DNA of 48,602 bases from NCBI GenBank assembly GCA_031364505.1, contig JANLWK010000085.1:1-48602 (forward strand). The letters run 5' to 3'. Source of the stretch: Candidatus Eiseniibacteriota bacterium. GTDB taxonomy: Bacteria; Eisenbacteria; RBG-16-71-46. Position 1 is the first letter of the stretch. Each line of letters starts with the position of its first letter. Under the pieces are notes generated by a model. It was not told the origin of the DNA, did no database searches, and was given only the letters and a program-made list of their open reading frames with translations. Positions 30,594 through 47,248 of the stretch are shown here, one piece after another. The translations under genes were made by a program, and so were the position numbers.

Positions 30594-30700
30594 CGTCAGG
30601 CCGAGCGCGACTGTTCGTACAATTCGATCACTAAATGTACAGTCGCCGGCCTCAAGGGATCGATCGATCCCGAACTTGGATCGCACAACCGGAGAACACA

Positions 30701-31108: not shown

Positions 31109-31128
31109 TCGCCGCAGCCGCGGTGTCG

Positions 31129-31242
31129 CGCCAACGACAAGCCCCCGCCGCGTATGGTCGGCGGGGCTTTCGTTTTGGCCCGGGACATGAGTGGACACGG
31201 ATGGTCGCGCTGGGTCATTGACGGGGTAGCCAACGGGTAGCC
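31129..31242 (+). repeat. Diverged partial copy of the att-arm repeat (no tRNA half)
   Basis: CGCCAACGA..GCCCC-hairpin..GGACATGAGTGGACAC..GGGTCATTGACGGGGTAGCCAACGGGTAGCC aligns with 38021-38134. Confidence 0.8.
31139..31176 (+). terminator. Intrinsic terminator-like hairpin (part of the repeat)
   Basis: AAGCCCCCGCCG-loop-CGGCGGGGCTT followed by TCGTTTT, downstream of the VOC gene. Confidence 0.7.
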
Positions 31243-31291
31243 GGTTTTCGAAGCCGGGTCCTATCCGCACTCCCTGAGGTACATTCCGTCG

Positions 31292-33733
31292 ATGCCACTG
31301 ACCCCCGGCACCCGGCTCGGCCCCTACGAGATCGTCGCGCCGCTCGGCGCGGGCGGGATGGGCGAGGTGTATCGCGCGAGGGACGCCCGCCTCGGGCGCG
31401 ACGTCGCCATCAAGGTGCTGCCGCAGCATCTGCGCTCCAGCCCCGAGGCGCTCACCCGCTTCGAACGCGAGGCGCGGGCGGTTTCGTCGCTCAACCATCC
31501 GCACGTCTGCACGCTCCATGACGTGGGCCGCCATGACGACATCGACTACCTCGTGATGGAATTGGTCGAGGGCGAGACGCTGGCCCAGCGGCTGGCGAAG
31601 GGGGCGCTGCCGACGGCGGACGTGTTGAGGCTCGGCGCCCAGATCGCCGACGCGCTAGATCGGGCGCACCGCGCTGGCGTGATTCATCGCGACTTCAAGC
31701 CCGGCAACGTGATGCTGACCGAGGCCGGGGTCAAACTGATGGACTTCGGGCTCGCGCGCGCAACGGGATTGTCGGCGCCCGCGAGCCCCAGCGGCGCGGT
31801 GATGGAGGCTCTCACGCAATCGCCGACGGTGGCGGCGCCGCTGACCGTCGAGGGCTCGATCGTCGGCACCGTCCAGTACATGGCGCCGGAGCAACTCGAG
31901 GGACGGGAGGCCGACGCGCGCAGCGATCTATGGGCGCTGGGTTGCGTGCTCTACGAGGTGGCGACGGGTAGGCACGCCTTCGAGGGGACGAGCCCAGCGG
32001 GCCTGATCGCCACGATCCTGAAGGAGCAGCCGCGGCCGCTGACGGAGCAAGCGCCGCTGATGTCACCTGGGTTCGAGCGCTTGGTGAACCAGTGTCTCGC
32101 CAAGAATCCCGACGAGCGCTGGCAGACGGCGAGCGATCTGCGCCGCGAACTGACGCGGATTGCGGAGCATGGCTCGTCGTCCGGACCCGGAACTCCCCCA
32201 AGGACCGCCTTCAGCGCACTCGCGGCGCGCCGCCTGCCCCTGTGGATCGCAGCCGCCATCGTTCTTTCAGGCTCGGCTTACCTCCTCGTCCGTAGCGGGT
32301 CGCTGCACCTGGGAGCCCCCGCACCGAACCCTGCCGCCACGCCCGGTGTCATTCGATCGATTGCCGTGCTACCGCTCGACAACTACTCGAGCGATCCAAA
32401 TCAAGACTATTTCGCCGAGGGCATGACCGACGAATTGACGGCCCAGCTTGCAACGATCAGCCAGCTGCGCGTGATTTCGCGCGGCTCGGCAATGCAGTTC
32501 AAGGGAGCGCATCGACCATCGACGCCCGAAATAGCGAAAGCGCTCAACGTGGACGCGGTTGTGGAAGGGTCGGTGACGCGAGTCGGCGACAAGGTACGAA
32601 TCACGGCCCAGTTGATCGACGCCCGGGCAGATCGGCATCTGTGGGCCCGGAGCTTCGAGCGCAGCTCGGGCGACGTGTTGGCGCTCCAGGCCGAACTCGC
32701 CTCGGCCATCGCACACGAGATCGATGTACAGTTGACCCCCACCGAGCAATCGCGGCTGGCCGCCGCGCCCCGCGTCGATCCGGAGTCGCACGATGCGTAC
32801 TTGAAGGGCCGATATTTCTTCAACCGCCCTAGCGACGACAACTTGAAGAAGGCGATCGCGCACTTCGAACAGGCGGTCCAATTGAGCCCGGACTTTGCGC
32901 CGGCATACTCGGGACTGTCGGACGCTTACCTCTGGGCCGGCTACAACGAAGGATTTCTGACCGCCACCGAAGGGCGGCGAAAGTCCAAGGCGGCCGCGGA
33001 GAAAGCCGTCCACCTGGACGACAACTCCGCCGAAGCCCACGCGTCTCTCGCCACATTCAGGCTGTTTTACGAATACGACTGGGACGGATGCGAGCGCGAG
33101 TTTCGGCGGGCCATCGCCCTCAACCCCAATTACGCGTTCGCCCACGATCAGTTCGGTATGGCCCTCGCCTTCCAGGGACGGATTGACGAAGCCGTCGCCG
33201 AGGGCAAACGCGCTGCCGAGCTGGATCCGCTGTCCCCCCAGATCCCGATTGATGCCGCGATGGCCTTCATGTTTCGGGGTGACTATGCGACGGCGAGGAG
33301 CCTGGCGAAGAAGGCCGCTGAACTCGATCCGACCTACTTCTTTCCTCCCATGTTGGAAGGTTGGGTCGATTCTGAATCCGGGAAGTTCGGTGACGCCATC
33401 CCGGCATTTGCGAAAGCCAAGTCGATGGATTCGCCCGGGTTCGTGACCGCATGGCTCGCATACGCGTACGGAGCTTCCGGCGATCGCGGCCGCGCGATGA
33501 CGGAGCTGGAAGATCTCAGGAAGACGTCACTGCATCACCAGGTACCGCCCTTCAGCCTCGCGCTCGTGTATCTCGGGCTGGGCGATCATCCGCGCGCAAT
33601 GGGATACCTGGAACAAGCCTATGCCACCGACTCGCAGTGGCTGGGATGGCTGAAGCTGGATCACGTCTTCGATCCACTCCGCTCCGACCCACGTTTCGTG
33701 GCGCTGTTACGGAAACTGGGATTCGAGCAGTGA
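31292..33733 (+). CDS. Ser/Thr protein kinase with TM helix, TolB-like and TPR domains
   Basis: HRDFKPGN, DFG, YMAPE; hydrophobic segment LWIAAAIVLSGSAYLLV; SIAVLPLDN..DYFAEGMTDEL; TPRs. Confidence 0.92.
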   Translation: MPLTPGTRLGPYEIVAPLGAGGMGEVYRARDARLGRDVAIKVLPQHLRSSPEALTRFEREARAVSSLNHPHVCTLHDVGRHDDIDYLVMELVEGETLAQRLAKGALPTADVLRLGAQIADALDRAHRAGVIHRDFKPGNVMLTEAGVKLMDFGLARATGLSAPASPSGAVMEALTQSPTVAAPLTVEGSIVGTVQYMAPEQLEGREADARSDLWALGCVLYEVATGRHAFEGTSPAGLIATILKEQPRPLTEQAPLMSPGFERLVNQCLAKNPDERWQTASDLRRELTRIAEHGSSSGPGTPPRTAFSALAARRLPLWIAAAIVLSGSAYLLVRSGSLHLGAPAPNPAATPGVIRSIAVLPLDNYSSDPNQDYFAEGMTDELTAQLATISQLRVISRGSAMQFKGAHRPSTPEIAKALNVDAVVEGSVTRVGDKVRITAQLIDARADRHLWARSFERSSGDVLALQAELASAIAHEIDVQLTPTEQSRLAAAPRVDPESHDAYLKGRYFFNRPSDDNLKKAIAHFEQAVQLSPDFAPAYSGLSDAYLWAGYNEGFLTATEGRRKSKAAAEKAVHLDDNSAEAHASLATFRLFYEYDWDGCEREFRRAIALNPNYAFAHDQFGMALAFQGRIDEAVAEGKRAAELDPLSPQIPIDAAMAFMFRGDYATARSLAKKAAELDPTYFFPPMLEGWVDSESGKFGDAIPAFAKAKSMDSPGFVTAWLAYAYGASGDRGRAMTELEDLRKTSLHHQVPPFSLALVYLGLGDHPRAMGYLEQAYATDSQWLGWLKLDHVFDPLRSDPRFVALLRKLGFEQ

Positions 33734-33863
33734 TGTGAGTGATCGGGTTTCATCGGACCGCGGACGAGCTGTCTAGAGCAGCGGTCTGGTGGACCGCATG
33801 CCTGATCGCCGCGTGCTGGATCGATTTCTTCACTGGGCGAACTGCGCTATCTTCTTGCGCCAC

Positions 33864-33899
33864 GGCCCCGTAGCTCAGACGGATAGAGCAGCGGTTTCC
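33864..33899 (+). tRNA. 5' half of tRNA-Arg(CCT), truncated within the anticodon
   Basis: GGCCCCGTAGCTCAGACGGATAGAGCAGCGGTTTCC (acceptor 5' strand, D arm, anticodon stem 5' strand); no 3' half follows. Confidence 0.8.
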
Positions 33900-34007
33900 C
33901 CATCGAAGTTCGCATGATCGGAGCTTGGGGGCGCCGGAATTCCGGATAAACTGCGCCGGACGTTCGCGGCGTGCCGCATCTCCACCCGGCCGAGAGTGTG
34001 ATCGAGT

Positions 34008-37000
34008 ATGGCGGATCGACAGCACCAAGCGCGCGAGCAACGAGAAGGCGAGCTGTTTCGCCTGCTGGTGGAAAACATTCAGGATTACGCCATCTTCGTC
34101 ATCGACACGGAAGGCCGGGTCGAAAACTGGAACCCGGGAGCGGAACGGCTGCTCGGTTATCCGGAAGCGGAAATTATCGGGCATTCGATCACTCCCTTGT
34201 TCACCCCGGAGGACATCGCGAAGGGCTTTCCGCAGCGGGAAATGCAGCAGGCGTTGGAGCAAGGTCGGGGAAACGATGACCGCTGGCACGTCCGCAAGGA
34301 CGGCTCCAGCTTCTGGTGCGGCGGGACGATGACGCCTTTGTGGGACGACAGCCGCCAGCTCAAGGGTTTCGCCAAGATCATGCGGGACCGCACGGAGTGG
34401 AGGCGGAACCAGGACGCCGTCGAGGAGCAAGTCCGGCTCGCCGCCTTCATCAAGGACGTGGGTCTCGCGCTCACCCAAAGCGACGATCTCCCGGACATGC
34501 TGCACCATTGCGCGGAGGCCATGGTCCGGCACCTAAACGGGGCATTCGCGCGCATCTGGACCCTTGATCCGCAGCGAAACGTGCTGGAGCTCCGGGCCAG
34601 CGCCGGTCGGTACACGCATCTGGATGGCCCGCATAGCCGCGTTCCGGTGGGCAAGTACAAGATCGGCCTGATCGCCCAGGAGCGCCAACCGCATTTGACC
34701 AACGCGGTGGCGAGCGACCGTCGTGTGAGCGATCGGGAGTGGGCCCGGCGTGAAGGTATGACGGCTTTCGCCGGCTATCCGCTGCTCGTGGAAGACCGGC
34801 TGGTAGGCGTCATGGCGATGTTCTCCGGGCACGATCTGTCGGATTCGACCCTCGAGGCGATGTCGTCGGTTGCCAACGGAGTTGCCCTCGGGATCGAGCG
34901 GAAATCCGCCGATGCGGAACGGCGACGGCACCAGGAATGGCTGCGGGTGACGCTGGCCAGCATCGGTGACGCCGTCATCGCCACCGACACCGAGGGCCGT
35001 GTCACGTTCCTGAATCCCGTCGCCCGGGAGCTGACGGGATGGAGCCAGGCGGACGCCCACGGGCAGCCTCTCGCAACCGTGTTCCGGGTCCTCCACGAAG
35101 AAACGCGTCTCCCCGTCGAGAACCCCGTCAGCAACGTTTTACGAGAAGGCCGGGGCGTGGGTCTGGGCAATTACACGGTGCTGGTCGCCCGGGACGGCAC
35201 GGAGCGGCCCATCGACGACTCCGCCGCCCCCATTCTCGACACGACCGGATCGCTGGCGGGAGTGGTCCTCGTGTTCCGCGACGTGACCGAACAACGTCGG
35301 GTGGAGCACCAGATGCGAGCGAGCGAGGCCCGTAAAGCGGCGATCCTGGAAACGGCTCTCGACTGCATCATCACGATGGATGCAATGGGGAAGGTGGTCG
35401 AGTTCAACCCCGCCGCCGAGAAGACGTTCGGCTACCGCCGCTCGGAGGTCGTCGGCCAGGAGCTCGCCGATTTAATCATTCCGGCATCGCTACGGGACCG
35501 GCACCACAAGGGCATGGCGCACTACCTGGCGACGGGAGAGGGGCCGGTTCTCGGAAAGCGACTCGAACTCCCCGCCCGGCGTGCGGATGGGACGGAGTTC
35601 CCCGTTGAGCTGGCAATCACCCGCATCCCGACCCCGGGCCCGCCGCTGTTCACGGCCTATCTGCGGGACATCAGCGAACGCAAGCGTCTCGAAGAGTCGT
35701 TGCGGGCGAGCGAGGAAAGGTTCCGCGGGCTGATGGAACAGGCACCCTTCAGCGTGCAGGTGTTCGCACCCGATGGGCGCACCGTACGGGTCAATCGCGC
35801 ATGGGAGGAATTGTGGGGCGTCACCCTCGACCAACTGGCCGGGTACAACATCCTGGCGGACGAGCAACTCGAGGCACGGGGTGTGCTTTCCTATATCCGA
35901 CGAGCCTTCGCCGGCGACCCCGCATTCGTGCCCGCGATTCGATATGACCCCAACGAGACGCTCCCCGACCAGACCCGACACCAGGATCCGGTGCGGTGGG
36001 TAGCCGCCGTCGCCTACCCCCTCAAGGACGACGCTGGCCAGGTTCGGGAGGTCGTCCTGGTCCACGACGACGTCACCGCGCGCATGCGCGCCGAAGCGGC
36101 ACTGCGCGAGAGCGAGGAAAAGTTGCGGTTGATGGCGGACACGATCCCGCAGCTGGCATGGATGGCCAGGCCGGACGGCCATATCTTCTGGTACAATCGC
36201 CGCTGGTACGAATACACCGGCACCACCGCCGAGCAGATGGATGGCTGGGGCTGGCAGTCCGTACACGATCCGGACGTACTGCCCAAGGTGCTCGAGCGAT
36301 GGAAGGGGTCGATCGCCAGCGGCCAGCCGTTCGACATGGTGTTCCCCCTCAGGGGCGCGGACCGCCATTTCCGTCCGTTCCTCACGCGCGTCAATCCGCT
36401 ACGGGACGAGAGCGGCCGGATCCTGTACTGGTTCGGGACGAATACCGACATCAGCGAAATCAAGAACATGGAAGAGGCGCTGCGGGACGCCGACCGCCGC
36501 AAAGACGAGTTCCTCGCAACATTGGCCCACGAGTTGCGCAACCCGCTCGCCCCAATCCGCAATTCGCTCCAGATCCTCAAGATGCCGCGGGTCGACCCGG
36601 CGACCGTCCAGCAGACCCGGGACATGATGGAGCGGCAGGTCCATCATCTCGTCCGACTCGTCGACGACCTGCTGGACGTGTCGCGTGTCATGCGGGGCAA
36701 GATCGAATTGCGCAAGGAGCCGGTGGAACTGGCCACCGTCGTCGCCCGGGCCGTCGAGACCGCTCAGCCGCTCATCGAGGTCCAGGGACACCGACTCGAA
36801 CTCTCGCTTCCGTCCGAATCGCTACTGGTGGACGCCGACCCGGTGCGACTGGCCCAGGTCGTCGGCAACCTATTGACGAACGCGGCAAAGTATACCGAGG
36901 CGAACGGATACATCTGGCTGACGGCCCAGCGAGATGGCGACCAGGCGGTGTTGCGGGTGCGGGACAACGGCATCGGTGTCACACCCGAGATGCTCCCGCA

Positions 37001-37619
37001 TGTCTTCGAGTTGTTCGTCCAAGTGGATCACGCTTCCACTAAAGCGCAGGGTGGGCTCGGGATCGGACTGACGCTCGTGAAGAATCTCGTCGAAATGCAC
37101 GGCGGCACCGTCGACGCCCATAGCGCCGGGCTCGGTAAAGGCTGCGAGTTTGTGGTGCGATTGCCGCTCGTGTTGCAAAAACGCCAGCAGGCGCACGAAT
37201 CGGACATCGCGGAACAGCAACCCGAGCCTGCGCGATCTTCCGGCCACCGGCTGATGGTCGTCGACGACAACCAGGACGCCGCCATCAGCTTCGCCATGCT
37301 GCTCCGGCTGCAAGGGCACGAGGTACGCATCGCCCACAACGGACCGGCGGCGTTGCAGATGGCGCAGGACTATACGCCCGACGTCGTGTTCCTGGACATC
37401 GGCATGCCCGGCATGGACGGCTATGAGGTCGCACGCCAGATGAGACAGCAGCCCGGCAAGGAGGATGTCGTACTGGCGGCACTCACGGGCTGGGGCCAGC
37501 GAGAAGATCGGCGGCGAACGGAGGAAGCGGGCTTCAACCACCACTTTGTCAAGCCACCGGACCTGAAGGCGGTCGAAAACCTGCTGTCACAACTACCCAC
37601 GCCAAGACCGCGTGCCTGA
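34008..37619 (+). CDS. Multi-PAS/GAF hybrid histidine kinase with receiver domain
   Basis: PAS (DYAIF..WNPGAE..RKDG), GAF, further PAS domains, LAHELRNPL, GGLGIGL, REC (FLDIGMPGMDG). Confidence 0.92.
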   Translation: MADRQHQAREQREGELFRLLVENIQDYAIFVIDTEGRVENWNPGAERLLGYPEAEIIGHSITPLFTPEDIAKGFPQREMQQALEQGRGNDDRWHVRKDGSSFWCGGTMTPLWDDSRQLKGFAKIMRDRTEWRRNQDAVEEQVRLAAFIKDVGLALTQSDDLPDMLHHCAEAMVRHLNGAFARIWTLDPQRNVLELRASAGRYTHLDGPHSRVPVGKYKIGLIAQERQPHLTNAVASDRRVSDREWARREGMTAFAGYPLLVEDRLVGVMAMFSGHDLSDSTLEAMSSVANGVALGIERKSADAERRRHQEWLRVTLASIGDAVIATDTEGRVTFLNPVARELTGWSQADAHGQPLATVFRVLHEETRLPVENPVSNVLREGRGVGLGNYTVLVARDGTERPIDDSAAPILDTTGSLAGVVLVFRDVTEQRRVEHQMRASEARKAAILETALDCIITMDAMGKVVEFNPAAEKTFGYRRSEVVGQELADLIIPASLRDRHHKGMAHYLATGEGPVLGKRLELPARRADGTEFPVELAITRIPTPGPPLFTAYLRDISERKRLEESLRASEERFRGLMEQAPFSVQVFAPDGRTVRVNRAWEELWGVTLDQLAGYNILADEQLEARGVLSYIRRAFAGDPAFVPAIRYDPNETLPDQTRHQDPVRWVAAVAYPLKDDAGQVREVVLVHDDVTARMRAEAALRESEEKLRLMADTIPQLAWMARPDGHIFWYNRRWYEYTGTTAEQMDGWGWQSVHDPDVLPKVLERWKGSIASGQPFDMVFPLRGADRHFRPFLTRVNPLRDESGRILYWFGTNTDISEIKNMEEALRDADRRKDEFLATLAHELRNPLAPIRNSLQILKMPRVDPATVQQTRDMMERQVHHLVRLVDDLLDVSRVMRGKIELRKEPVELATVVARAVETAQPLIEVQGHRLELSLPSESLLVDADPVRLAQVVGNLLTNAAKYTEANGYIWLTAQRDGDQAVLRVRDNGIGVTPEMLPHVFELFVQVDHASTKAQGGLGIGLTLVKNLVEMHGGTVDAHSAGLGKGCEFVVRLPLVLQKRQQAHESDIAEQQPEPARSSGHRLMVVDDNQDAAISFAMLLRLQGHEVRIAHNGPAALQMAQDYTPDVVFLDIGMPGMDGYEVARQMRQQPGKEDVVLAALTGWGQREDRRRTEEAGFNHHFVKPPDLKAVENLLSQLPTPRPRA

Positions 37620-37629
37620 AAAGCGACCT

Positions 37630-37702
37630 GGCGGTGGCGGAGCGCTTCGATCGTTTGAAACGACCGTGCTCCTGACCGTCGACGAAACGATGGATGCCCT
37701 GC
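37630..37702 (+). pseudogene. Fragment of a GYD gene paralog
   Basis: GGGGALRSFETTVLLTVDETMDAL closely matches 4195-4267 of the intact GYD gene. Confidence 0.8.
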
Positions 37703-37703
37703 A

Positions 37704-37813
37704 CGACACACGTTCGCGTGTCAGTGGCGGGAACGCGGTGGAAACCTGCCGCGCTGCCGCAAATCTTGGGACACGCGAGCATCGAGACCACGCCGCGGTG
37801 TTATGCCAGACAC
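37704..37813 (+). mobile_element. Decayed C-terminus of a tyrosine recombinase/integrase
   Basis: RHTFACQWRERGGNL then, after a 1-nt frameshift, AALPQILGHASIETTPRCYAR = RHTFA...LGH...TT..Y catalytic box II. Confidence 0.78.
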
Positions 37814-37922
37814 ACGGCCAAACCACAGCCAAGACCGCACCCAAGCCACCGCCGGGCGCTCTACAAAGTTCTATAGGGTGCCTTGCGCAAGTTGAAGTAA
37901 TCGAACACAGTGCCCGGCCCAT

Positions 37923-38150
37923 GGCCCCGTAGCTCAGACGGATAGAGCAGCGGTTTCCTAATTCCGATCAGCGATTTCTCACCGACGTCGACACGCCTCA
38001 CGCAAGTCATTCGGAATACTCGCCAACGAAGAGCCCCGCCCGGAGATGCCCGAGCGGGGCGATCGTTTTTCGATGGACTTGAGCGGACACCAACGGTCAC
38101 GGTGGGTCATTGAAGGGGTAGCCAAGGGGTAGCCAAGTATGGTGGCGGTT
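37923..38150 (+). repeat. tRNA-Arg(CCT) 5' half (37923-37961) plus conserved att-arm, copy A
   Basis: tRNA identity ends at the anticodon loop TTCCTAA; then hairpin GCCCCGC..GCGGGGC with T run and AAGGGGTAGCC x2 (38113-38136). Confidence 0.88.
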
Positions 38151-38416
38151 ATTCGTCTTGTATCACCCCACCTTCCTCCTCATGAGACGCTCCGCTTCCG
38201 CGGCGGGGAGAGTGCGCGCTGAGAGCGCGGGGAGCGCGGGGAGGCGGGCTCAGGTGCTGGCCGAGACGATGCCGCGAGCCGCGGCGAGAGGGGCGCGGCC
38301 GGTGCCGAGGGCCGGGTGGGGCTCAGGCGTCGGGATTCGATGTGGAGCGGGGTGCCGGTACGGCGTACAGTCGGCTCCACGCGCATGAAAGTTCCTATCC
38401 TTCCACGGAGACCATC

Positions 38417-40744
38417 ATGATGCGTTTGCGTCGACTGCTACCACTCGTTCTCCTCTCGTGTCTGCCGAGCTTCGCGACGGCGTCATCGGAAAACGTCACG
38501 ACCTCGCTGTCGGTCTTCGACATCCATACGCCGGGGATTTGGCGCCAGGAAGTTCGCGGGCGCGACGTCGCCCGCTCGGTTCGGAACTACAACTGGGTGA
38601 TCAACCAGCGCATCTGGCTCGATCGCAACGCGGTGGGCGTGTGGGTCTCGGGTCAGGCGCTCGAGAGTTTCACGTGCGTGAGCAACAGCATTGTCAGGAA
38701 CCCCATGGGGCCGGGGTTCTGGCGCATCCGGCGCACGTTTTATCAGAACGACGTCCGGCGCTTTCGACTCCATTACCGCGTGTTCTGGGTGGGTCATGCG
38801 AACACGGTCATCCGTGATTCGATCCCCGATCCGAGCGCGATAACTCCCCCGAACTCGCGGTTCACCATGACGATGGATCATCTCGAAATGGTACTGCCGG
38901 TGGAGCCCACCGACCCTACGCAGGACACCGATCCTCCCATCAACGAATTGGTCGAGATCACGGACGAAAACGGGGGCATGCACCTTCTCGGTCAGCCCGG
39001 TTTCGAAACGATGCCGGACACGCAATTGAATCCGGGTGGCTACCAGCTCGCGACGACCGAGCTGTCGACGTACACCTTGCCGCCTGCAGCTCAACGCATC
39101 AGCGATCCCGGAATGCCGCCGATGACGGGCCAGGTCGAGATCTCGCCGGGTGTCGTCATGGAGTTCCTGATGGACGTGTTCGGAAACGTGCAGGTCGATC
39201 ACGCACCGCCACCCGGACCGGACGATCCGTTCTCGTCCACAGTGCTCGGACGCGAGAAGCATCAAGGGCTCGTCGGTCAGCCGACCAGAATCGACGGAGA
39301 CGAGCTGCCGGTCGATCAGAACGTGGTTCCGCTCCAGCTCTATAGCTGGGCGCTCACGCCCAGCGGGGAGGTGCTCGGCGCGCTGTCCGGGCAGAACGTC
39401 ATCGGACCGCCGGTGGATATGAACGGGAATTCCGTTGCCGACAATGCCCTGGGTGCCCCGGTGCCGATGGATCCCACGGTGCGCGACATCGACAATGTTC
39501 TCGATCCCGCCGCCCAGCCGGTGGATGTCGTGATCGAGGAAGACGACGAGCCCACCAGCCTCGAGCTGAGCGCTTACAACGCGAAGCTGACCGCCGCGGG
39601 TCTCGCGGACGTGTACCCGCCCTTCAAGTTCGGCATCAAGAGGGTCAAGCTGCGCAAGGCATGGGGCATCGATCGGCGCATGGTGATGGACACATGGCTT
39701 CATCACTGGGTGTGGAGTGCCCAGAACTACGTCGTCGTGCGGGCGGGTCCGTATCGTGTATGCGTTTCGAAAGTCGGGCTATCGAGCTACACGAGCGATC
39801 ACCGGAAGTTCCCGGTCGGCCAGTCTCCACAGGCGTCGAACTACGGGCTGCAGCATCTGCGATTCTTCCGCCTCTGCTATCGGATCTATCGTCCGCATCC
39901 GGACCAAGTGCGCATCAAGGTCGACCAACTCTTCATCGTCGTGCCGCTCGATGCGAACGATCCCAATTCGGACCTCATGGCGCTCGTGACCACGGGCGAC
40001 GAAAACAAGCTCTTCCAAATCGTTCCACCCCCCGTGCTCGCCGGGCTCCAGCCGGATCCTTTGCCCTTCGGTCAGGACGGCGTGTTCATGGAACCGCTCG
40101 ATCCGATCACGGACTGCATGGACATCGGTGGTGGCGGCACCAACATCTTCGACGGCGACCTGTCGGCGCTCGGTACGTCGCAACAGAACGTGCCCGTGGT
40201 CGCGAACGAGGATCTGGCGACGGAGCTGCGAAACGACCAGCTCCAGCTCTATTGCTGGATCTTGTCGCCGAACGGCACGATGAAATCCGAGTCCTTCACG
40301 GACCAGGTCCACCCATCGACGCCGGTGGTGTTCACGATTCCGGGGACGCCGGCAATTCCATGGTTCCGGGATGCGAACGATCTTCCAGTGCCGGACCCGA
40401 CGCTGCTCGCGCTACGTCTGAACCTTGTGACGGGTGTTGAGGGCCCGCAGCAGTTCGCCGCACGCCTGCACCAGAACGTTCCCAATCCGTTCAATGGATC
40501 GACGACGGTCTGGTTCAGTGTGCCGGGGCGTACGGGAGCGGGGGAGACGTTGCCCGTGCGGCTCTCGATCTTCGACGTACAGGGCCGCGAGATCACGCGG
40601 CTCCTCGATGGCCGGCTCGAGCCAGGCAACTACACGATCCCGGTGGAACGGAGCGACCTCGGACGATCGCATTCCGCAGTGTTCTTCTATCGCCTCGAGG
40701 TCGCGGGGGAGAAGATCACTCGGAAGCTGGTGCCGCTGAACTGA
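38417..40744 (+). CDS. Large secreted protein with two internal repeats and FlgD/T9SS-like C-terminal domain
   Basis: GGAG RBS; signal peptide MMRLRRLLPLVLLSCLPSFATA; C-terminal LHQNVPNPFN.STT..F...V.LSIFDVQGR.I..L..G...PG......VFFYRL. Confidence 0.8.
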   Translation: MMRLRRLLPLVLLSCLPSFATASSENVTTSLSVFDIHTPGIWRQEVRGRDVARSVRNYNWVINQRIWLDRNAVGVWVSGQALESFTCVSNSIVRNPMGPGFWRIRRTFYQNDVRRFRLHYRVFWVGHANTVIRDSIPDPSAITPPNSRFTMTMDHLEMVLPVEPTDPTQDTDPPINELVEITDENGGMHLLGQPGFETMPDTQLNPGGYQLATTELSTYTLPPAAQRISDPGMPPMTGQVEISPGVVMEFLMDVFGNVQVDHAPPPGPDDPFSSTVLGREKHQGLVGQPTRIDGDELPVDQNVVPLQLYSWALTPSGEVLGALSGQNVIGPPVDMNGNSVADNALGAPVPMDPTVRDIDNVLDPAAQPVDVVIEEDDEPTSLELSAYNAKLTAAGLADVYPPFKFGIKRVKLRKAWGIDRRMVMDTWLHHWVWSAQNYVVVRAGPYRVCVSKVGLSSYTSDHRKFPVGQSPQASNYGLQHLRFFRLCYRIYRPHPDQVRIKVDQLFIVVPLDANDPNSDLMALVTTGDENKLFQIVPPPVLAGLQPDPLPFGQDGVFMEPLDPITDCMDIGGGGTNIFDGDLSALGTSQQNVPVVANEDLATELRNDQLQLYCWILSPNGTMKSESFTDQVHPSTPVVFTIPGTPAIPWFRDANDLPVPDPTLLALRLNLVTGVEGPQQFAARLHQNVPNPFNGSTTVWFSVPGRTGAGETLPVRLSIFDVQGREITRLLDGRLEPGNYTIPVERSDLGRSHSAVFFYRLEVAGEKITRKLVPLN

Positions 40745-40864
40745 GCTGGGCGCGGATAGAGCCGATGTGTCGCGGTGAGGGGTACCATTTCCCGACCACT
40801 GATGGGCTGACGAAAAATGTGTGCGGCCCGTCTGGTCAGCCTCGCCGAGGGCGTCTCAAGGTTG

Positions 40865-40886
40865 ACCGTAACCCAACCGTAACCCA
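40865..40886 (+). repeat. 11-bp tandem repeat upstream of tRNA half (arm-type site candidate)
   Basis: ACCGTAACCCA x2. Confidence 0.75.
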
Positions 40887-40906
40887 TCGTTCCCGCATCT
40901 CGTTGT

Positions 40907-41133
40907 GGCCCCGTAGCTCAGACGGATAGAGCAGCGGTTTCCTAATTCCGATCAGCGATTTCTCACCGATGTCGATACGCCTCTCCTAAGTCATTCGGAA
41001 CACTCGTCAACGAAGAGCCCCGCCCGGAGATGCCGAGCGGGGCGATCGTTTTTCGATGGACTCGAGCGGACACGAACGGTCACGGTGGGTCATTGAAGGG
41101 GTAGCCAAAGGGTAGCCAAGTATGGCGGCGGTT
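40907..41133 (+). repeat. tRNA-Arg(CCT) 5' half (40907-40945) plus conserved att-arm, copy B
   Basis: Near-identical to copy A, including GGGTAGCCAA x2. Confidence 0.88.
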
Positions 41134-41176
41134 GGGAGGCCGGACGCCTGAGTCGCCGATCGGGTAGAGTCCCCCG

Positions 41177-43765
41177 ATGCCACTCGCCCCCGGCACCCGC
41201 CTCGGCCCCTACGAGATCGTCGCGCCGCTCGGCGCGGGCGGGATGGGCGAGGTGTTTCGCGCGCGCGACACCCGGCTCGAACGCGACGTTGCAGTGAAGG
41301 TGCTGCCGCAGCATCTCTCCGCGAACCCCGAGGTGCGTGCCCGCTTCGAGCGCGAGGCGAAGACCGTCTCCTCGCTCAACCACCCGCACATCTGCACGCT
41401 GCACGACGTCGGACGCGAGGGCGACACCGACTATCTGGTGATGGAGTTGGTCGAGGGCGAGACGTTGGCCCAGCGGCTCACGAAGGGGCCGCTGGCCACC
41501 GCCGAAATACTCAAACTCGGCGCTCAGATTGCCGAAGCGCTCGACCGCGCGCACCGTGCCGGCGTGGTCCACCGGGACCTCAAGCCCGGAAACGTGATGC
41601 TGACGAAATCGGGTGCGAAGCTGATGGACTTCGGGCTTGCGCGGTCGGCGGGCATGCCTGGCGCCGCGCGAGGCAGTGGAGACTTTTCCGGGCTGACGCA
41701 GTCGCCCACAGTTGCCGCACCACTGACCGCCGAAGGCACGATCGTCGGGACATTTCAGTACATGGCGCCCGAGCAGCTCGAGGGAAAAGAAGCAGACGCA
41801 AGATCGGACATCTGGGCGCTGGGCTGCGTGTTCTATGAAATGGCGACGGGGAAGCGCGCGTTCGAGGGCAGGAGCCAGGCGTCGCTGATCGCCGCCATCA
41901 TGAACACGGAACCCGCTCCGCTCGGCGCGTTGGCACCCATGGCGCCGCCGGCGTTCGAACGGTTGGTGAAACAGTGCATCGCCAAGGATCCCGACGACCG
42001 CTGGCAGTCGGCAGGGGACCTGAGCCACGAGCTCAAGTGGATCGCGGATGCGGGCTCGCGCGCCGGCGTGCCGACGCCGGTCTCGGCGCAACGCGCGAGC
42101 CGCGAGCGCATCGCCTGGCTGCTCACCGCGGTGCTCGCGGTGGTTGCCGCCACCTTCGCGCTGCGTTCGGGCAATCGCTCGGGCGGGCAGGTGACCTTCA
42201 AGCAGCTCAGCTACCAGCCGGCGGCGATCTTCCGGGCCGCCTTCGCTCCGGACGGCAAGACCATCGTGTACAGCGCAGCACGCGAGGGTAACACGCCCGA
42301 GATCTTCACCGTCCGCCCGGAGTATCCCGAGCCCCAGTCGCTCGGACTGCATAGCGCACAACTCCTCTCGGTGTCCTCGACGGGAGAGTTGGCCGTGCTC
42401 ACCGACGCGCGTTACCTCGCCCATCGGCTCTTCACCGGTACGCTGGCTCGCATGCCGCTGGGCGGCGGAGCGCCGCGCGAGATACTCGAGAGTGTTCGCG
42501 AGGCGGACTGGTCGCCGGACGGCTCGCAGCTCGCAATCATTCGCCTCGTCCAGGGCAGGGATCGACTCGAGTTCCCGATCGGCCACGTGCTGTGCGAATC
42601 CGGTGGGTACCTGAGCGATCTCCGAGTGTCACCGCGGGGAGACCGGATCGCGTACTTCGAACATCCGTCGCGCTTCGACGATCGCGGTTCGGTGAACGTC
42701 GTCGATCTCCACGGCAAGAAGACCGTGCTCTCGGATGGCTACTGGGGCGAGGAAGGAATCGCTTGGACCAAGGACGGCGCGGAGATCCTGTTCTCGGCGA
42801 GCTACGGCGGTAACACATGGACGATCTACGCCGTGACGCTGGCCGGCAAGCGGCGCGTTGCCCTCGAGAGCGCCGGCGGGCTCACGATCCACGACGTGGC
42901 CCGAGATGGACGCTGGCTCGCGACCCGGGATGATCAGCGCGATGGGATCATGGTCCACACTCCCGAGTCGAACGAGGACCGGGATCTCTCCTGGCTCGAT
43001 CTCTCCGAGGGCGCGATCCTCTCGCAGGATGGGCGGACGGTCATCTTCAGCGAGCAGAGCGCCGCGATGGGGACCAACTACGCGGTGGGTCTTCGGAAGA
43101 CCGATAGATCACCCGTGGTGAAGTTGGGGGAAGGAACCCCGAGAGACCTGTCCGCGGACGGCAAGTCCGTGCTCGCGGTGGTCGCATCCACACCGCCCCA
43201 GATCGTGATCTATCCCACGGGGGCAGGCGAGCTCCGGCATCTCGATCGAGGCGGTTTGGAGAATGTCGAGTCCGCGGAGTGGTTCCCCAACGGCGACAGC
43301 ATCCTGATCTGCGGCAACGAGCCGGGCACGGCGACACGGTTCTACGTCAAGGATCTGGCGGGGGGCACCCCGCGCGGTGTGACGCCCCCGGGAACGAACA
43401 GCGGGAAGCTCTCGCCGGATGGCAAGCTCGTCCTGGCGAAGGGGCCCGATGGCAAGTTTTTCCTTTATTCGCTCTTCGGAGGCGAACCGCGACCCATACC
43501 GTGGTTGTCGGAATTCGAGAGGCTCATCTGCTGGACTGCGGACGGACGCTCGGTGCTCGTGAGCAGCGACGCGATGATTCCCAGCCGCGTCGAGCGGGTC
43601 GATCTCGAGACCGGACGCCGAACCCTCTTCAAGGAGATCGCGCCATCGGACCGTGTTGGATTGATGTTGGTTAATCTCAGCTTCCTTACGCAGGACGAAC
43701 GATCGTACGCCTACGGAATCACCCGGCAGACGTCGACTCTATTCCTCGTGGAGAGCAAGAAGTGA
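41177..43765 (+). CDS. Ser/Thr protein kinase with TM helix and PD40/TolB-like beta-propeller
   Basis: HRDLKPGN, DFG, YMAPE; TM helix; repeated FAPDG/WSPDG/SPRGD blades. Confidence 0.92.
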   Translation: MPLAPGTRLGPYEIVAPLGAGGMGEVFRARDTRLERDVAVKVLPQHLSANPEVRARFEREAKTVSSLNHPHICTLHDVGREGDTDYLVMELVEGETLAQRLTKGPLATAEILKLGAQIAEALDRAHRAGVVHRDLKPGNVMLTKSGAKLMDFGLARSAGMPGAARGSGDFSGLTQSPTVAAPLTAEGTIVGTFQYMAPEQLEGKEADARSDIWALGCVFYEMATGKRAFEGRSQASLIAAIMNTEPAPLGALAPMAPPAFERLVKQCIAKDPDDRWQSAGDLSHELKWIADAGSRAGVPTPVSAQRASRERIAWLLTAVLAVVAATFALRSGNRSGGQVTFKQLSYQPAAIFRAAFAPDGKTIVYSAAREGNTPEIFTVRPEYPEPQSLGLHSAQLLSVSSTGELAVLTDARYLAHRLFTGTLARMPLGGGAPREILESVREADWSPDGSQLAIIRLVQGRDRLEFPIGHVLCESGGYLSDLRVSPRGDRIAYFEHPSRFDDRGSVNVVDLHGKKTVLSDGYWGEEGIAWTKDGAEILFSASYGGNTWTIYAVTLAGKRRVALESAGGLTIHDVARDGRWLATRDDQRDGIMVHTPESNEDRDLSWLDLSEGAILSQDGRTVIFSEQSAAMGTNYAVGLRKTDRSPVVKLGEGTPRDLSADGKSVLAVVASTPPQIVIYPTGAGELRHLDRGGLENVESAEWFPNGDSILICGNEPGTATRFYVKDLAGGTPRGVTPPGTNSGKLSPDGKLVLAKGPDGKFFLYSLFGGEPRPIPWLSEFERLICWTADGRSVLVSSDAMIPSRVERVDLETGRRTLFKEIAPSDRVGLMLVNLSFLTQDERSYAYGITRQTSTLFLVESKK

Positions 43766-43901
43766 GGACGGGCTGGTCGGCATCCACCGCGGGCGAAGAC
43801 CGCCAGGTAGCAGGGGCGAGCACGCCATGAACAGCGGTCGAGTAGACCGCGTGCTTGATTGATTTCGTCGTCGAGCCGCGTGCGCTATCTTCGTCCGCCG
43901 T

Positions 43902-44129
43902 GGCCCCGTAGCTCAGACGGATAGAGCAGCGGTTTCCTAATTCCGATCAGCGATTTCTCACCGACGTCGATACGCCTCACGTAAGTCATTCGGAACACTC
44001 GCCAACGAAGAGCCCCGCCCGGAGGTGCCCGAGCGACGCAATCGTTTTTCAATGGACTGGAGCGGACACGAACGGTCACGGTGGGTCATTGAAGGGGTAG
44101 CCAAAGGGTAGCCAACTATGACGGCGGTT
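43902..44129 (+). repeat. tRNA-Arg(CCT) 5' half (43902-43940) plus conserved att-arm, copy C
   Basis: Near-identical to copies A and B. Confidence 0.88.
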
Positions 44130-44172
44130 GGGAGGCCGGGCCCCTGAGTCGCCGATCGAGTAGAGTCCCCCG

Positions 44173-46872
44173 ATGCCACTCGCCCCCGGCACCCGCCTTG
44201 GCCCCTACGAGATCGTCGCGCCGCTCGGCGCGGGCGGGATGGGCGAGGTGTTTCGCGCGAAGGACACGCGCCTCGGCCGCGACGTCGCGGTCAAGGTGCT
44301 GCCCCAGCACCTCTCCGCCAACTCCGAGGTGCGCGCGCGCTTCGAGCGCGAGGCGAAGACGGTCTCCTCGCTCAACCACCCGAACATCTGCACGTTGTTC
44401 GACGTGGGGCGCGAGGGTGACACCGACTACCTCGTCATGGAGCTGATCGAGGGCGAGACCTTGGCCCAGCGACTCGCGAAGGGCGCGCTGCCCATCGCCG
44501 ATGCGCTCCGCATCGGCGCTCAGATCGCCGATGCGCTCGACCGCGCGCATCGCGCCGGGGTGATTCATCGTGACCTCAAGCCCGGCAATGTGATGCTTAC
44601 GAAGAGCGGCGCCAAGCTCATGGACTTCGGACTCGCGCGCGCGACGGGGCTGGCGGGCGACCGCGGTGTCAGCGGTGCGACCCTGTCGACGATTACGCAG
44701 TCGCCCACCATGGCCGCGCCGTTGACCGCCGAGGGCTCCATCGTCGGCACGTTCCAGTACATGTCGCCTGAGCAGCTCGAGGGCAAGGAGGCGGACACCC
44801 GCAGCGATCTCTGGGCGCTCGGCTGCGTGCTGTACGAGATGGCGACCGGCCGGCGCGCGTTCGAGGGCGCGACGCAGGCGAGCCTGATCGGCACCATCAT
44901 GCGTGACTCGCCACGGCCGATGGCGGAGCTGGCGCCGATGTCGCCGCCTGCGCTCGACCGGCTCGTGGGCGCGCTGCTCGCGAAAGACCCGGACGACCGC
45001 GTCCAGACGGCGCACGACGTGAAGCTTCAGCTCCAGTGGACGGGAGACGGTTCGTCCGCGGGTTCGCTCCCCACCGCGATCGCCGGGATCGCGGCCCGGC
45101 CCCGTGCCAGCCGGGAGCGTCTCGCATGGGTCATCGCCGCGGTCGGTGTGGCGCTTGGAATCGTCGGCATCGTCGTCGTGCTGCGCCTTCGGCCGGCCGT
45201 TCCGGGGCAGGGCGTAACGCGCTTCTCCATCGCCGCGCCCGAAAACGTGAACCTCAACTCGGATCCCACGATGTCGGCCATCTCGCCCGACGGTCGTACG
45301 CTCGCATTCGTCGCCGCCGATTCCGGGGGCACGGTCCGAATCTGGGTGCGCCCGCTCGAGAGCCTCACGCCGCGGCCGCTACTCGGGACCGAGAACGGGG
45401 TGCTTCCTTTCTGGTCGCCCGACAGCCGCAATCTGGCGTTCTTCTCCGACAACGGAAAACTCAAGAAGATACCGATCGCGGGCGGAAATCCGGAGGAGAT
45501 CTGCGACGCGGCCGATGGCCGTGGCGGAAGCTGGGGCTCGGATGGCGTGATCGTGTTCGCCCCCAAGGCCTCGGGTCCACTGTTTCGTGTCCCGGCGAGC
45601 GGAGGAGATGCGGTGCAAGCCACGCGTCTCGACTCGTCACGCCAGGAGACCGGTCACCGCTGGCCCTGCTTCCTTCCCGACGGAAAGCACTTCCTCTTCG
45701 TGGGGATGCCGGCGCGCCGGGGCAGCTTCGACTTCTTCGTCGGCTCACTCGATTCGAAGGGGACGAAGCACCTGGGAAGCGCGAGCTCTGCTCCGGTCTT
45801 TGCCTCGGCCGGGTATCTCATCTTCGTTCACAACACCTCGATCGTGGCCCAGGGATTCGACCCTCGGCGTCTAGCGTCGAGCGGTTCCCCGGTCACCCTG
45901 GGCGAGGCGCCACCGCCTTCCGGGTACACCGGGGCGCAAACGGTGACCGCCTCGAACAACGGAGTCCTCGCCCACGCGGGGGGAGGGTTGCCGAACACGG
46001 AACTCCAGTGGCTCGACCGCGCGGGGCAGCCGGCCGGGGCGATTCCCGTGCCCGCGGGCCGCTACCAGGAAGCTCGATTGTCGCCCGATGGGAAGCGGCT
46101 CTGCATCGAGAGGCGAAACTCCGCTTCCGAAGTGGACCTCTGGCTCGTCGACCTGGACCGCGCGACCTCCACCCGCTTCACCTTCGGACCGACGACCAAC
46201 TACTGGCCGGCCTGGTCTCCGGACGGCAGTCGCATCGCCTTCGCATCGAACCGGTCCGGTCCCGATGACATCTACGTCAAGCCCACCAACGGGGCGGCGG
46301 AAGAGACGCCGATCCTCACGGGCGGCGCCCTGTTCAAGGACCCGTACAGCTGGTCGGCGGACGGGCGCTTCATCGTCTTCGAGGAACCGAACGATCGAAC
46401 CGGCTGGGACCTTCGAATGGTGCCGGTGGACGGGGATCGCAAGCCAATTTCATATCTTCACACCGCGTTCAACGAGCGCGCCGGAGTCGTTTCACCGGAT
46501 GGACGCTGGATCGCCTATACGTCCGACGAATCCGGAAAGCAGGACGTCTATGTCCAGTCGTTTCCCGCTCCCGGCAGCAAGCACCAGGTCTCGACCGGAT
46601 CGGCCGGCTTGCGCGTCATCTGGTCACGCGGCGGCAAGGAGTTGGTCTTCGTCGCCGGTGATGGATTCACGCTCATGGCCGTCGACGTCACGACCAGCCC
46701 CGCTTTTCACGTCAGCGCGCCCCGCAAACTCTTCAAGCTACGGCAGGACTACGTGGGGATAGAGGTCACTCCGGACGGACAGCGCGTGCTTGTCGTCGCC
46801 CCCGCGGGACAGGGCGCGGCCCCCACGATCACGATCGAGCAGAACTGGACCGCGGGACTGAAGAAGCCATGA
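44173..46872 (+). CDS. Ser/Thr protein kinase with TM helix and PD40/TolB-like beta-propeller
   Basis: HRDLKPGN, DFG, YMSPE; ISPDG/FWSPD/WSPDG/SPDGRWIAY blades. Confidence 0.92.
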   Translation: MPLAPGTRLGPYEIVAPLGAGGMGEVFRAKDTRLGRDVAVKVLPQHLSANSEVRARFEREAKTVSSLNHPNICTLFDVGREGDTDYLVMELIEGETLAQRLAKGALPIADALRIGAQIADALDRAHRAGVIHRDLKPGNVMLTKSGAKLMDFGLARATGLAGDRGVSGATLSTITQSPTMAAPLTAEGSIVGTFQYMSPEQLEGKEADTRSDLWALGCVLYEMATGRRAFEGATQASLIGTIMRDSPRPMAELAPMSPPALDRLVGALLAKDPDDRVQTAHDVKLQLQWTGDGSSAGSLPTAIAGIAARPRASRERLAWVIAAVGVALGIVGIVVVLRLRPAVPGQGVTRFSIAAPENVNLNSDPTMSAISPDGRTLAFVAADSGGTVRIWVRPLESLTPRPLLGTENGVLPFWSPDSRNLAFFSDNGKLKKIPIAGGNPEEICDAADGRGGSWGSDGVIVFAPKASGPLFRVPASGGDAVQATRLDSSRQETGHRWPCFLPDGKHFLFVGMPARRGSFDFFVGSLDSKGTKHLGSASSAPVFASAGYLIFVHNTSIVAQGFDPRRLASSGSPVTLGEAPPPSGYTGAQTVTASNNGVLAHAGGGLPNTELQWLDRAGQPAGAIPVPAGRYQEARLSPDGKRLCIERRNSASEVDLWLVDLDRATSTRFTFGPTTNYWPAWSPDGSRIAFASNRSGPDDIYVKPTNGAAEETPILTGGALFKDPYSWSADGRFIVFEEPNDRTGWDLRMVPVDGDRKPISYLHTAFNERAGVVSPDGRWIAYTSDESGKQDVYVQSFPAPGSKHQVSTGSAGLRVIWSRGGKELVFVAGDGFTLMAVDVTTSPAFHVSAPRKLFKLRQDYVGIEVTPDGQRVLVVAPAGQGAAPTITIEQNWTAGLKKP

Positions 46873-47241
46873 CGCTCACTCCCGGCACCCGCCTCGGCCC
46901 CTACGAGATCGTTGCGCCTCTAGGAGCGGGGGGGATGGGCGAGGTGTACCGCGCGCGACCCGGGCATCGGGCGCGACGTGGCGATCAAGGCGTTGCCGGT
47001 CGCGTTCGCCCAGGACCCGGAACGCCGTGCGTGGCGTGCGATGGTCCGGCGACGGCCGTGCGCTGATACTGTTCGACCAGAAGCGCCGCGTGATCGCCGT
47101 CCCCGTGCAATTCGAAGGTGGGTTCCGACAGGGGGCACCGCACACGCTGTTCGCGCTGCCTCCGACACCGCACTGGTCGGCATGTCACCCGACCTGCGCC
47201 GCTTTCTCCTTCTCGAAGGCGAGCCGCTGCCCAATCCCTGA
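46869..47241 (+). pseudogene. Collapsed kinase-propeller gene (5' end joined to 3' end)
   Basis: MTLTPGTRLGPYEIVAPLGAGGMGEVYRAR..VAIKALP..FAQDPER joined to RWSGDGRAL..VIAVPV..GAPHTLF..DLRRFLL; frameshifts; start overlaps the previous stop (ATGA). Confidence 0.8.
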
Positions 47242-47248
47242 AGGCGCG

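Follow-up and report, generated by a model that had tools for sequence, protein, structure and literature searches.

Transfer RNA (tRNA) genes are classic landing sites of mobile DNA, and nearly all of the islands mapped to them replace the 3′ part of the gene. In the opposite, 5′-side geometry, each incoming unit must bring the upstream control region of the tRNA together with a 5′ half. The subject of the present analysis is a stretch of 48,602 nt (hereafter, the window) that carries an array of repeated tRNA-Arg(CCT) 5′ halves, delimiting units of mostly one gene each. The window is the whole of contig C33 (JANLWK010000085.1, positions 1–48,602, forward strand) of genome G000, a metagenome-assembled genome (MAG) of a Candidatus Eiseniibacteriota bacterium (GCA_031364505.1) that consists of 474 contigs, has a G+C content of 70% and is 92% complete. 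The best explanation of the array is that integrative units have accreted one behind another at the tRNA-Arg(CCT) anticodon loop, with the rarer 5′-side geometry, a reading to which a probability of about 0.68 is assigned.

According to the Islander report (Hudson, Lau & Williams 2015, PMC4383910), islands with 5′ fragments make up 159 of 3919, and tandems of three or more number 4 in 2168 genomes, with an integrase being required for each member. The duplication of the 5′ half had been called the less common geometry in a preliminary description of the window, and the former count agrees with this. As outlined there, a tyrosine integrase splits the tRNA gene, which the island then restores; the displaced end fragment keeps the orientation of the gene and is situated upstream of it; the anticodon marks the centre of the crossover; and tandem arrays are recognised. 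The array in the window resembles the Islander 5′-fragment islands in these respects, but differs from them, so far as they are described there, in having at least four displaced 5′ halves in addition to the intact gene, no intact integrase, mostly single-gene units and a family-wide occurrence.

Islands built by tycheposons in Prochlorococcus (Hackl et al., bioRxiv 10.1101/2020.12.28.424599) grow by successive integrations at one tRNA that push older elements inward, and they share with the present array the partial tRNAs between elements, the fragmented integrases and stray partial tRNAs left by old events, and the plug-in cargo modules. Tycheposons belong, however, to another lineage and presumably another integrase group, and usually hold integration and replication modules, which the units described here lack: no primase, helicase or polymerase domains turned up in the Pfam scan of the window units. 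The arm build and the delivery of an upstream box, which are reported below, are not described in the part of the preprint consulted. Accretions of ICEs (integrative and conjugative elements), IMEs (integrative and mobilisable elements) and cis-mobilisable elements are similar in that att-flanked, integrase-less units stand in tandem and may be moved by the integrase of a neighbour (PMC5704250, PMC13651849), but they usually have two members, usually sit at the 3′ end of a gene and are linked to conjugative elements; conjugation or mobilisation genes were not seen among the units examined here. Likewise, the Dehalococcoides ssrA islands are several islands at one small-RNA gene that share a common site-specific mechanism, and their target is the tmRNA gene, unlike the tRNA-Arg of the present case (PMC3146451).

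Layout of the array

A search with the 36-nt core of the tRNA half recovered four copies on the plus strand of the window without a single mismatch, at 33864, 37923, 40907 and 43902, and no match in 100 shuffles. The distances between the successive halves are 4059, 2984 and 2995 nt. Copy 1 (33864–33899) is cut after GGTTTCC, and copies 2–4 (37923–37961, 40907–40945 and 43902–43940) hold all 39 nt, including the anticodon loop TTCCTAA, after which they run into a common arm of ~190 nt. The three arms are ~94% identical; half plus arm show a mutual identity of 93.5–94.8% over 229–232 nt, with an exact stretch of 62–63 nt in common. The 39-nt half corresponds to positions 1–38/39 of the intact tRNA-Arg(CCT) predicted by ARAGORN on another contig of the same genome, C363. 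Each of the three intervals between halves holds one long open reading frame (ORF), for a histidine kinase (34008–37619), an 800-aa protein (38342–40744) and a Ser/Thr kinase (41177–43765), respectively. The positions and spacings of the halves, the single large gene per interval and the break of three copies at TTCCTAA before a shared arm are all as stated in the preliminary description.

The only tRNA-Arg(CCT) gene of G000 was called by ARAGORN on C363, c[5058–5134], its first 39 nt being those of the halves. The link between C363 and the window is provided by the kinase gene KC (47439–48602), whose N-terminal 387–388 aa are cut off by the window end. The window part of KC is 92% identical to residues 46–430 of a 930-aa kinase of the related genome G004, and a 475-aa open frame at the start of the reverse-complemented C363 is 92% identical to residues 456–930 of the same protein. 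Because the two parts match adjoining segments of one G004 kinase, C363 would follow C33 after a gap of ~25 codons, and by this join the intact tRNA is placed ~1.6 kb to the right of the window end. On C363, KC is followed by an upstream box of class P (see below) and then by the intact tRNA-Arg(CCT). The preliminary description advised looking for an intact gene to the right of the window, and it is through the two parts of KC that it could be located.

The build of the arm was derived from an alignment of 26 half/arm junctions. The arm starts with ~30 variable nt and continues through a AAGTCATT-like motif to a strong GC hairpin, which has a T run; behind this come a pair of GGACA boxes and, last, repeats. 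The latter are two direct repeats of a GGTAGCCA-like word, which have a period of 11 and lie ~130–155 nt from the crossover; the word itself varies by genome (GGGTAGCC, GGCGACCA, CGGTAGCC, GTAGCAGA and GGCTACCA). A hairpin and a direct 8-mer repeat with a period of 9–13 were found at the expected distances in 19 of 38 displaced-half junctions, as compared with 22 of 220 random places within the same loci. At G030:C23, half and arm are recognisable at 75% identity over 218 nt and are followed by an XRE gene and unrelated DNA; thus, the arm belongs to the site and not to the kinases. In the window, arm copy 2 (37962–38150) has the proximal motif, a hairpin of 11–12 bp with a T run, a GGACA box and two GGGTAGCCAA with a period of 11. 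As determined by alignment, arm copy 3 (40946–41176) extends to the start codon of the kinase gene KA and is 94.1% identical across 273 nt to copy 4 (43941–44172), in which substitutions weaken the hairpin. In arms 2 and 3 the hairpin scores as terminator-like, and the direct repeats of the arm may be bound by a protein.

Sequences upstream of the tRNA are repeated as well. When the 30 nt preceding 64 copies in 38 loci were typed, the same classes were obtained for displaced and intact copies: 7 P, 9 X and 5 other among the 21 script-called intact copies, and 20 P, 8 X and 15 other among the 43 script-called displaced ones, three of these 'halves' being in fact an intact gene (G036), a contig-end copy (G083) and a gene that is cut short behind the anticodon stem (G027). 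The displaced and the intact copy of G003 have boxes with the same letter at 29 of 30 positions. As found by motif search and alignment, copy 1 in the window is preceded by a hairpin and a class P box (CTGCGCTATCTT; 33779–33863), a stretch with 83.5% identity to 43847–43937 and 81% to the sequence upstream of the intact tRNA on C363; its box equals that of the intact tRNA of G070:C116 (58/58 identical, window 33842–33899). The box before copy 2 (37882–37922; defined by alignment to G004:C49) is of class X, which also precedes the intact tRNAs of G015, G021, G005 and G033, and box plus half are 88.8% identical to the stretch upstream of the intact tRNA at G004:C49. The stretch upstream of copy 3 (40866–40906), delimited by reading of the sequence, carries a direct repeat (CCGTAACCCA, twice) and belongs to neither class, and copy 4 again follows a hairpin and a class P box (GTGCGCTATCTT; 43832–43901; motif search and alignment). 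As an upstream box is kept at every half, the repeated unit is arm, cargo, upstream box and 5′ half. A putative promoter function of the boxes is suggested by their position upstream of intact tRNAs. The internal junctions had been proposed to resemble attP sites, and they indeed present upstream box, half and arm in this order.

All of the halves begin at tRNA position 1 and lie on the plus strand upstream of, and in the same orientation as, the intact gene. The identity to the tRNA stops within or just after the 7-nt anticodon loop, of which the variants TTCCTAA, TTCCTGA, TTCCCAA and TTCCTAG occur at the crossover. Two units of the window, 37962–40945 and 40946–43940, are att-flanked, have no integrase of their own and hold one ORF each, as in an accretion of non-autonomous elements.

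The array exceeds the region 33864–44129 to which it was first assigned, as it has the intact tRNA beyond the window on its right and a decayed distal arm (31129–31242) on its left. The latter, situated upstream of the gene K31292, comprises a hairpin, a GGACA box and one GGGTAGCCAA but no tRNA half, and is 75–77% identical to the three arms, with motif matches at 31193 and 31224. Apart from this decayed arm, arm and half are absent elsewhere in G000; the genome-wide search proposed in the preliminary description therefore confines its copies to the array. K31292 (31292–33733), which is either the left-most unit or the left flank, encodes a Ser/Thr kinase with TPR repeats (Pfam Pkinase and TPR), and its C-terminal part is present in G070:C235 at 89.7% nt identity.

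The other features of the window are, like those above, on the plus strand. The cargo of unit 1 is a hybrid histidine kinase (HK, 34008–37619) with the Pfam domains PAS, GAF, HisKA, HATPase and REC. Between HK and a remnant of an integrase gene described below lies debris of 73 nt (37630–37702), a fragment of a GYD-domain gene that is 90% identical to window positions 4195–4267, the 3′ part of a GYD-domain ORF 33 kb away. The 800-aa protein of unit 2 (38342–40744) has no Pfam match and carries a weak T9SS-type C-terminal tail, for which the TIGR04183 scores are under the cut-off. KA (41177–43765), the cargo of unit 3, and KB (44173–46872) encode Ser/Thr kinases with PD40 repeats (Pfam), and the 5′ part of KB is 85–97% identical to KA. 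KB is followed by two kinase pseudogene pieces (46869–47310) delimited by repeat families, an internally deleted copy and a second N-terminal fragment, and then by the first 40 nt of a 'hairpin plus box' module (47375–47414; 83–86% identity to 43832–43871) that is fused to the last ~25 nt before KC. In total, the row of Ser/Thr kinases in the window comprises eight genes or pseudogenes (24923, 28296, 31292, 41177, 44173, two fragments at 46869–47310, and 47439), and the N-terminal motif MPL.PGTRLGPYEI is near-identical throughout the row (24923–48602).

A few further observations concern C363 and the tRNA calls of G000. At ~0.8 kb downstream, the tRNA is followed on the other strand by a transposase gene with rve and Mu-transposase C-terminal domains (C363, 2862–4217), and a gene for a P-type ATPase comes after it. 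An IstB-like ATPase, read from a translation on C363, was dismissed, since its ORF gave no Pfam family; this leaves the rve/Mu-type transposase ORF as the one with support. Immediately behind the tRNA there is a short direct repeat (TTCCGGATATTCTGGCCCCT, twice). Elsewhere in the genome, ARAGORN called five tRNA-Ala genes of 85–98 nt, as opposed to the normal ~76 nt (contigs C44, C64, C266, C279 and C360), and two tRNAs with irregular anticodon loops (contigs C169 and C315), which could be spurious predictions in GC-rich sequence, or else genes with an interruption.

Arrays, integrases and shared cargo in related genomes

A 341-nt query consisting of upstream box, half and arm had matches in 52 of 61 related genomes (the only result here that draws on the unpublished genome G038), often with several per contig. 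In a census of 89 family genomes for a 30-nt core, with up to two mismatches allowed, the core was present in 56; two or more copies were counted from the census table in 33, and 16 have two or more of them within 25 kb on a single strand of a single contig. Nine arrays of relatives have both the intact tRNA and at least one displaced half on one contig (G014, G022, G034, G004, G030, G003, G098, G102 and G065), and in all nine it is the intact tRNA that closes the array downstream, on the strand of the halves. Some array-bearing genomes consist of few contigs (1 in G022, 9 in G014 and 20 in G034); as the G022 assembly has a single contig, such arrays do not stem from assembly fragmentation. 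The smallest unit measures 662 nt (G098) and the largest ~12.7 kb, the latter being the unit with an integrase that adjoins the tRNA in G034. Their cargo, which sits on either strand, includes kinases, a HEPN/nucleotidyltransferase pair, a TPR-S sensor protein and restriction-modification genes, as well as T9SS-tailed proteins, recognised by eye from C-terminal motifs and not by a family search, and, in G027, metal-transport genes read from translations without a family search. The content and the order of units differ between the annotated arrays of relatives, as had been anticipated, and the link of the repeats to a tRNA is supported by the terminal position of the intact gene in the nine arrays and by an integrase at the tRNA in six genomes.

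At G098:C54 (L050 3835–7456), two units measure 700 and 662 nt and have near-identical arms. The largest ORF predicted in either of them, found in the 662-nt unit, is one of 111 aa. They may be nearly empty units or duplicated sites.

In the six genomes, a gene for a Xer-like tyrosine integrase immediately precedes the tRNA or half and is oriented towards it, both being on one strand. The integrase of G003 (339 aa; PF00589) has homologues with 57–65% identity in G034, G002 (which is of the same genus as the window), G019, G016 and G007, and in G007 the stop codon of the integrase gene is 9 nt from the tRNA. A complete element of 6.3 kb is contained on one contig in G003, with half/arm, genes for two HTH_17 (excisionase-type) proteins, the integrase gene, an ORF, box and intact tRNA in succession. 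In G007, the displaced half and arm are on another contig (C52), followed by Mrr-type nuclease and methylase genes. NCBIfam analysis marked the integrase as Xer-like, with scores under every curated cut-off.

In the window, the C-terminal remnant of the cognate integrase (~40 aa) was detected at 37704–37816, ~100 nt upstream of copy 2, by tblastn with the G003 and G034 integrases. It retains the segments RHTFACQW... and ...LGHASIETT...Y in two frames, separated by one frameshift, with 55–74% identity. The other PF00589 genes of G000, of which the best matches are Xer-like, are on different contigs and are not close to the G003 integrase (C131, 28%; C241, 45% over 64 aa; C48, not significant). 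An integrase within each island, as asked for by Islander, is thus seen in the relatives G003, G007 and G034 and not in the window. The tyrosine integrase postulated in the preliminary description is therefore real as a family encoded at this tRNA in relatives and as a remnant in the window, but an intact copy in G000 was not found. The remnants at units (37704–37816, and another in G019) imply that at least some units are decayed full elements.

A second integrase type, 47–51% identical to the first, was noted at the same tRNA-Arg(CCT) locus. In G003 (L023:17253–18038), G004:C25 (L034:356–1141) and G015 (L039:13264–14070), its gene is located downstream and on the other strand relative to the tRNA; in G007 (L043:548–1357), it is on the same contig as the tRNA. 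Elements of the usual 3′-side geometry may target the same tRNA gene from the other side.

Some of the cargo of the window is shared with other genera. The HK block (33981–37609) is 85.7% identical (87% aa) to a block of G004:C49, and the class X box and half behind it match the same contig separately, where they are joined to an intact 3′ half; the ~270 nt between the coding block and box plus half do not align with G004. KC, with its class P box and half, is 93.5% identical up to the anticodon loop in G004 and 87–91% in G002 (nt), and the half is a displaced one in both. The block that KA, with its class P box and half, has in common with G073:C100 (84.5% nt, 86% aa) begins at the start codon and reaches the anticodon loop. 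As window proteins encoded at 11577–14126 and 972–2276 gave weak or paralogous matches only in G001, G002, G004, G014 and G020, ORFs flanking the arrays of relatives were used as a baseline instead. Nine ORFs flanking the G004 array match G000 at 30–80% aa identity (median, 62%), a baseline far lower than the identities obtained for the shared blocks.

Full-length HK orthologues were found in 3 of the 88 other family genomes (G070, 91%; G004, 87%; G067, 86% aa, partial), and not in the same-genus genomes G001 and G002; the gene has four different upstream neighbours in four genomes. In G070 (C235), the orthologues of K31292 and HK (~90% nt) are separated by a gene for a 547-aa protein and not by a tRNA half. 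The 800-aa protein has one homologue in the 88 other family genomes (G033:C204, 82% aa), with the likeness limited to the coding sequence and the gene not sited at a tRNA. It was discarded as evidence of transfer, since its neighbours in G033 match G000 at 44–86%, so that 82% is unexceptional and patchiness alone stands. Judged from these alignments, the shared cargo would fit a horizontal spread of units bounded at the crossover.

Proposed mechanism and competing explanations

We infer the recombination chemistry and the order of arrivals as follows. A Xer-like tyrosine integrase would recombine a circular element with the tRNA gene inside the 7-nt anticodon loop, the attachment site of the element being the tRNA upstream box and tRNA positions 1–38, followed by the arm. 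The element would insert upstream of the tRNA 3′ half, supplying a new upstream box and a new 5′ half, and the former box and half would be displaced leftward and fused to the arm of the element. Repeated rounds would give the order half/arm–cargo–box–half/arm–cargo–...–box–intact tRNA. The units of G000 would since have lost their integrase, leaving the one 40-aa remnant, and one internal junction would have been deleted at 47375–47414, where the start of the module runs straight into the ~25 nt before KC, the pattern expected from such a deletion. Gene conversion has probably made the three arms of G000 alike. In its assembled form, the array looks like a fossil, or dependent on an integrase supplied in trans.

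Several observations weigh against tandem accretion in this simple form. Copy 1, truncated to 36 nt, has no arm behind it, and the junction left of HK in G004 is likewise without an arm. An intact integrase of this type was not found in G000, a genome 92% complete, so that its absence is unproven, and no arm-binding domain was recognised in the integrase at the Pfam/NCBIfam level. A scan of 30900–47600 with the sigma-70 consensus gave no promoter-like site. The inter-genus identities come from MAG contigs, some of them short, in which mis-binning or chimeras could mimic transfer, and the left arms are not common to the genera along with the cargo. The box behind KC ends in the intact tRNA in G000 but in a displaced half in G004 and G002, a difference not expected from simple accretion if the left flank is fixed; G002 and G004 retain a decayed arm upstream of KC. 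The three arms of G000 are far more alike than the cargo, and units 3 and 4 gradually lose their likeness, with 97% identity at first and ~60% some 1.1 kb inside the kinase genes, an indication that part of the pattern arose in situ by conversion or duplication. The different position of the KC box, the homogeneity of the arms and the unshared left arms together indicate that recombination between repeats reshaped the array after the integrations. Thus, of the repeated integration at one tRNA proposed in the preliminary description, the anchoring, the break in the loop and the accretion are upheld, and part of the likeness between units is probably due to gene conversion.

The same fading identity is what would be expected if there had been a single old integration, with one half/arm junction (attL) that was later spread by unequal crossing-over and gene conversion within the kinase cluster. 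The eight kinase genes and pseudogenes in a row from 24923 to the window end, the 94% likeness of the arms, the identity of units 3 and 4 that reaches ~1 kb into the kinases, and the distal arm before K31292 as well (75–77%) are all in keeping with such a local duplication. It is, however, improbable, as the repeat has its left edge at tRNA position 1 in copies 2 and 3 although the three sequences that stand upstream are unrelated, the cargo is unrelated between units (HK, the 800-aa protein and the kinases) and lies on either strand in relatives, and the same architecture recurs with other cargo in many genera. Moreover, G004 has the box and half of copy 2 connected to an intact 3′ half, which means that this junction was made at the anticodon loop itself. 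Still smaller is the probability that the array was produced by assembly or binning, with the reads of several strains mis-joined across repeats of 60–230 nt. The window is indeed a short-read MAG contig from a bin of 474, its repeat copies share the exact 62–63-nt stretch, and the listed Logan contigs span no whole half plus arm; but the listed Logan contigs cover each transition from unique to repeated sequence (33000–33884, 38096–38595, 40490–40934, 42157–43927 and 43911–44214) with 0–6 differences, the arms differ at ~6% of positions, which lets assemblers separate the copies, and arrays of the same kind occur in the one- and few-contig genomes G022, G014 and G034. This read evidence consists of Logan contigs of four runs (X1–X4, from one study, among 20 listed), which hold 42–93% of the sampled window words; the pieces are short, and all of the listed joints have a shorter side of 20–29 letters, which makes them unreliable. 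The low depth of X1 over 38731–40814 and 44983–46545 leaves holes that prove nothing. In one X1 Logan contig, which runs through KA and copy 4, the anticodon loop (window 43940) is followed by 8 letters (ACCGAAGG) that fit neither the arm nor, past ACCG, the tRNA of C363, and that are too short to interpret.

Group I introns occur in bacterial tRNA-Arg(CCU) genes, and the break inside the anticodon loop, after U, recalls an interrupted tRNA in which the arm is such an intron; the hairpin with a T run ~100 nt downstream also makes a transcript of ~140 nt conceivable, that is, a small-RNA gene derived from the tRNA and composed of half and arm. Both forms of this idea have a negligible probability. 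Rfam search of 30500–48602 on both strands returned no match of any family at E ≤ 1, and the arm thus belongs to no known family of introns or other RNAs; ARAGORN called no tRNA gene in the window; the 3′ half follows none of the arms; and the arm is conserved across genomes as modules and not as one structured RNA. A group I intron was accordingly rejected, with no intron fold in Rfam and no 3′ exon. A more serious alternative is that the units are working cassettes, captured and excised singly by an integrase acting in trans, so that the integrase-less units of arm, cargo, box and half form a live, reshufflable store. In its favour, most of the annotated units are small (0.66–8 kb, by a tally of the annotated arrays), lack an integrase and have complete ends. 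The same cargo also occurs with other neighbours and at other positions (HK with its four upstream neighbours; KC last in G000 and left of other units in G004 and G002, where the decayed arm upstream of it is kept), its distribution is patchy (of the 88 other family genomes, 3 have HK and 1 has the 800-aa protein), and an integrase adjoining the intact tRNA, as in G034, could act on the neighbouring array. We nevertheless regard this as rather unlikely, given that no integrase of this type was found in G000, that the remnants in the window and in G019 mark some units as decayed full elements, that arms do not travel with the cargo between genera, and that no excision products were seen in the short Logan pieces. 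The wider proposal of a family-wide gene-capture platform at tRNA-Arg(CCT), with cassettes of 0.7–8 kb, the Xer-like integrase and its HTH_17 partners acting in trans and exchange between genera, seems doubtful to a similar degree. Tandem accretion, followed by recombination between the repeats, is thus the explanation retained here.

Relation to integrons and significance

The preliminary description called the array integron-like. Like integrons, it is an ordered row of mostly single-gene units that are bounded by recombination sites, associated with a tyrosine recombinase and held at one anchor. Unlike in integrons, the units bring an upstream box and a part of the tRNA, and they would enter at the tRNA and not beside an integrase gene. 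The tRNA-site integrases score 51.6–63.5 bits in TIGR02249 (integron-integrase) as compared with a cut-off of 265, so that even the best of them is no IntI, and no attI was identified. Rfam search of 30500–48602 yielded nothing for attC, and the junctions are not attC-like by eye, no dedicated attC model having been run. The integron thus serves as an analogy only.

The class of mechanism is already known. What is new is the 5′-side geometry with delivery of an upstream box throughout the family, the length of the array, the mostly small and integrase-less units, and the defined build of the arm; no description of a 5′-side array at tRNA-Arg(CCT) was found in the literature searched, with supplements being outside the scope. 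A family of GC-rich sediment and soil bacteria accordingly uses the mirror image of the usual geometry, with unusually long rows of small units, whose genes encode kinases, a histidine kinase, secreted proteins and, in relatives, defence functions. In practice, the repeats can be used to delimit accessory genes in poorly studied genomes, and annotators should not mistake a run of tRNA 5′ halves for tRNA predictions that failed. The site is compact and well defined, and it offers a testable pair of integrase and att site, as well as a natural case for asking if integrase-less units at a tRNA gene act as cassettes. If the platform reading is true, each capture would 're-head' the tRNA gene, the array would be an ordered, reshufflable store of signalling and defence genes, and the family would possess a functional analogue of the integron built on a tRNA gene.

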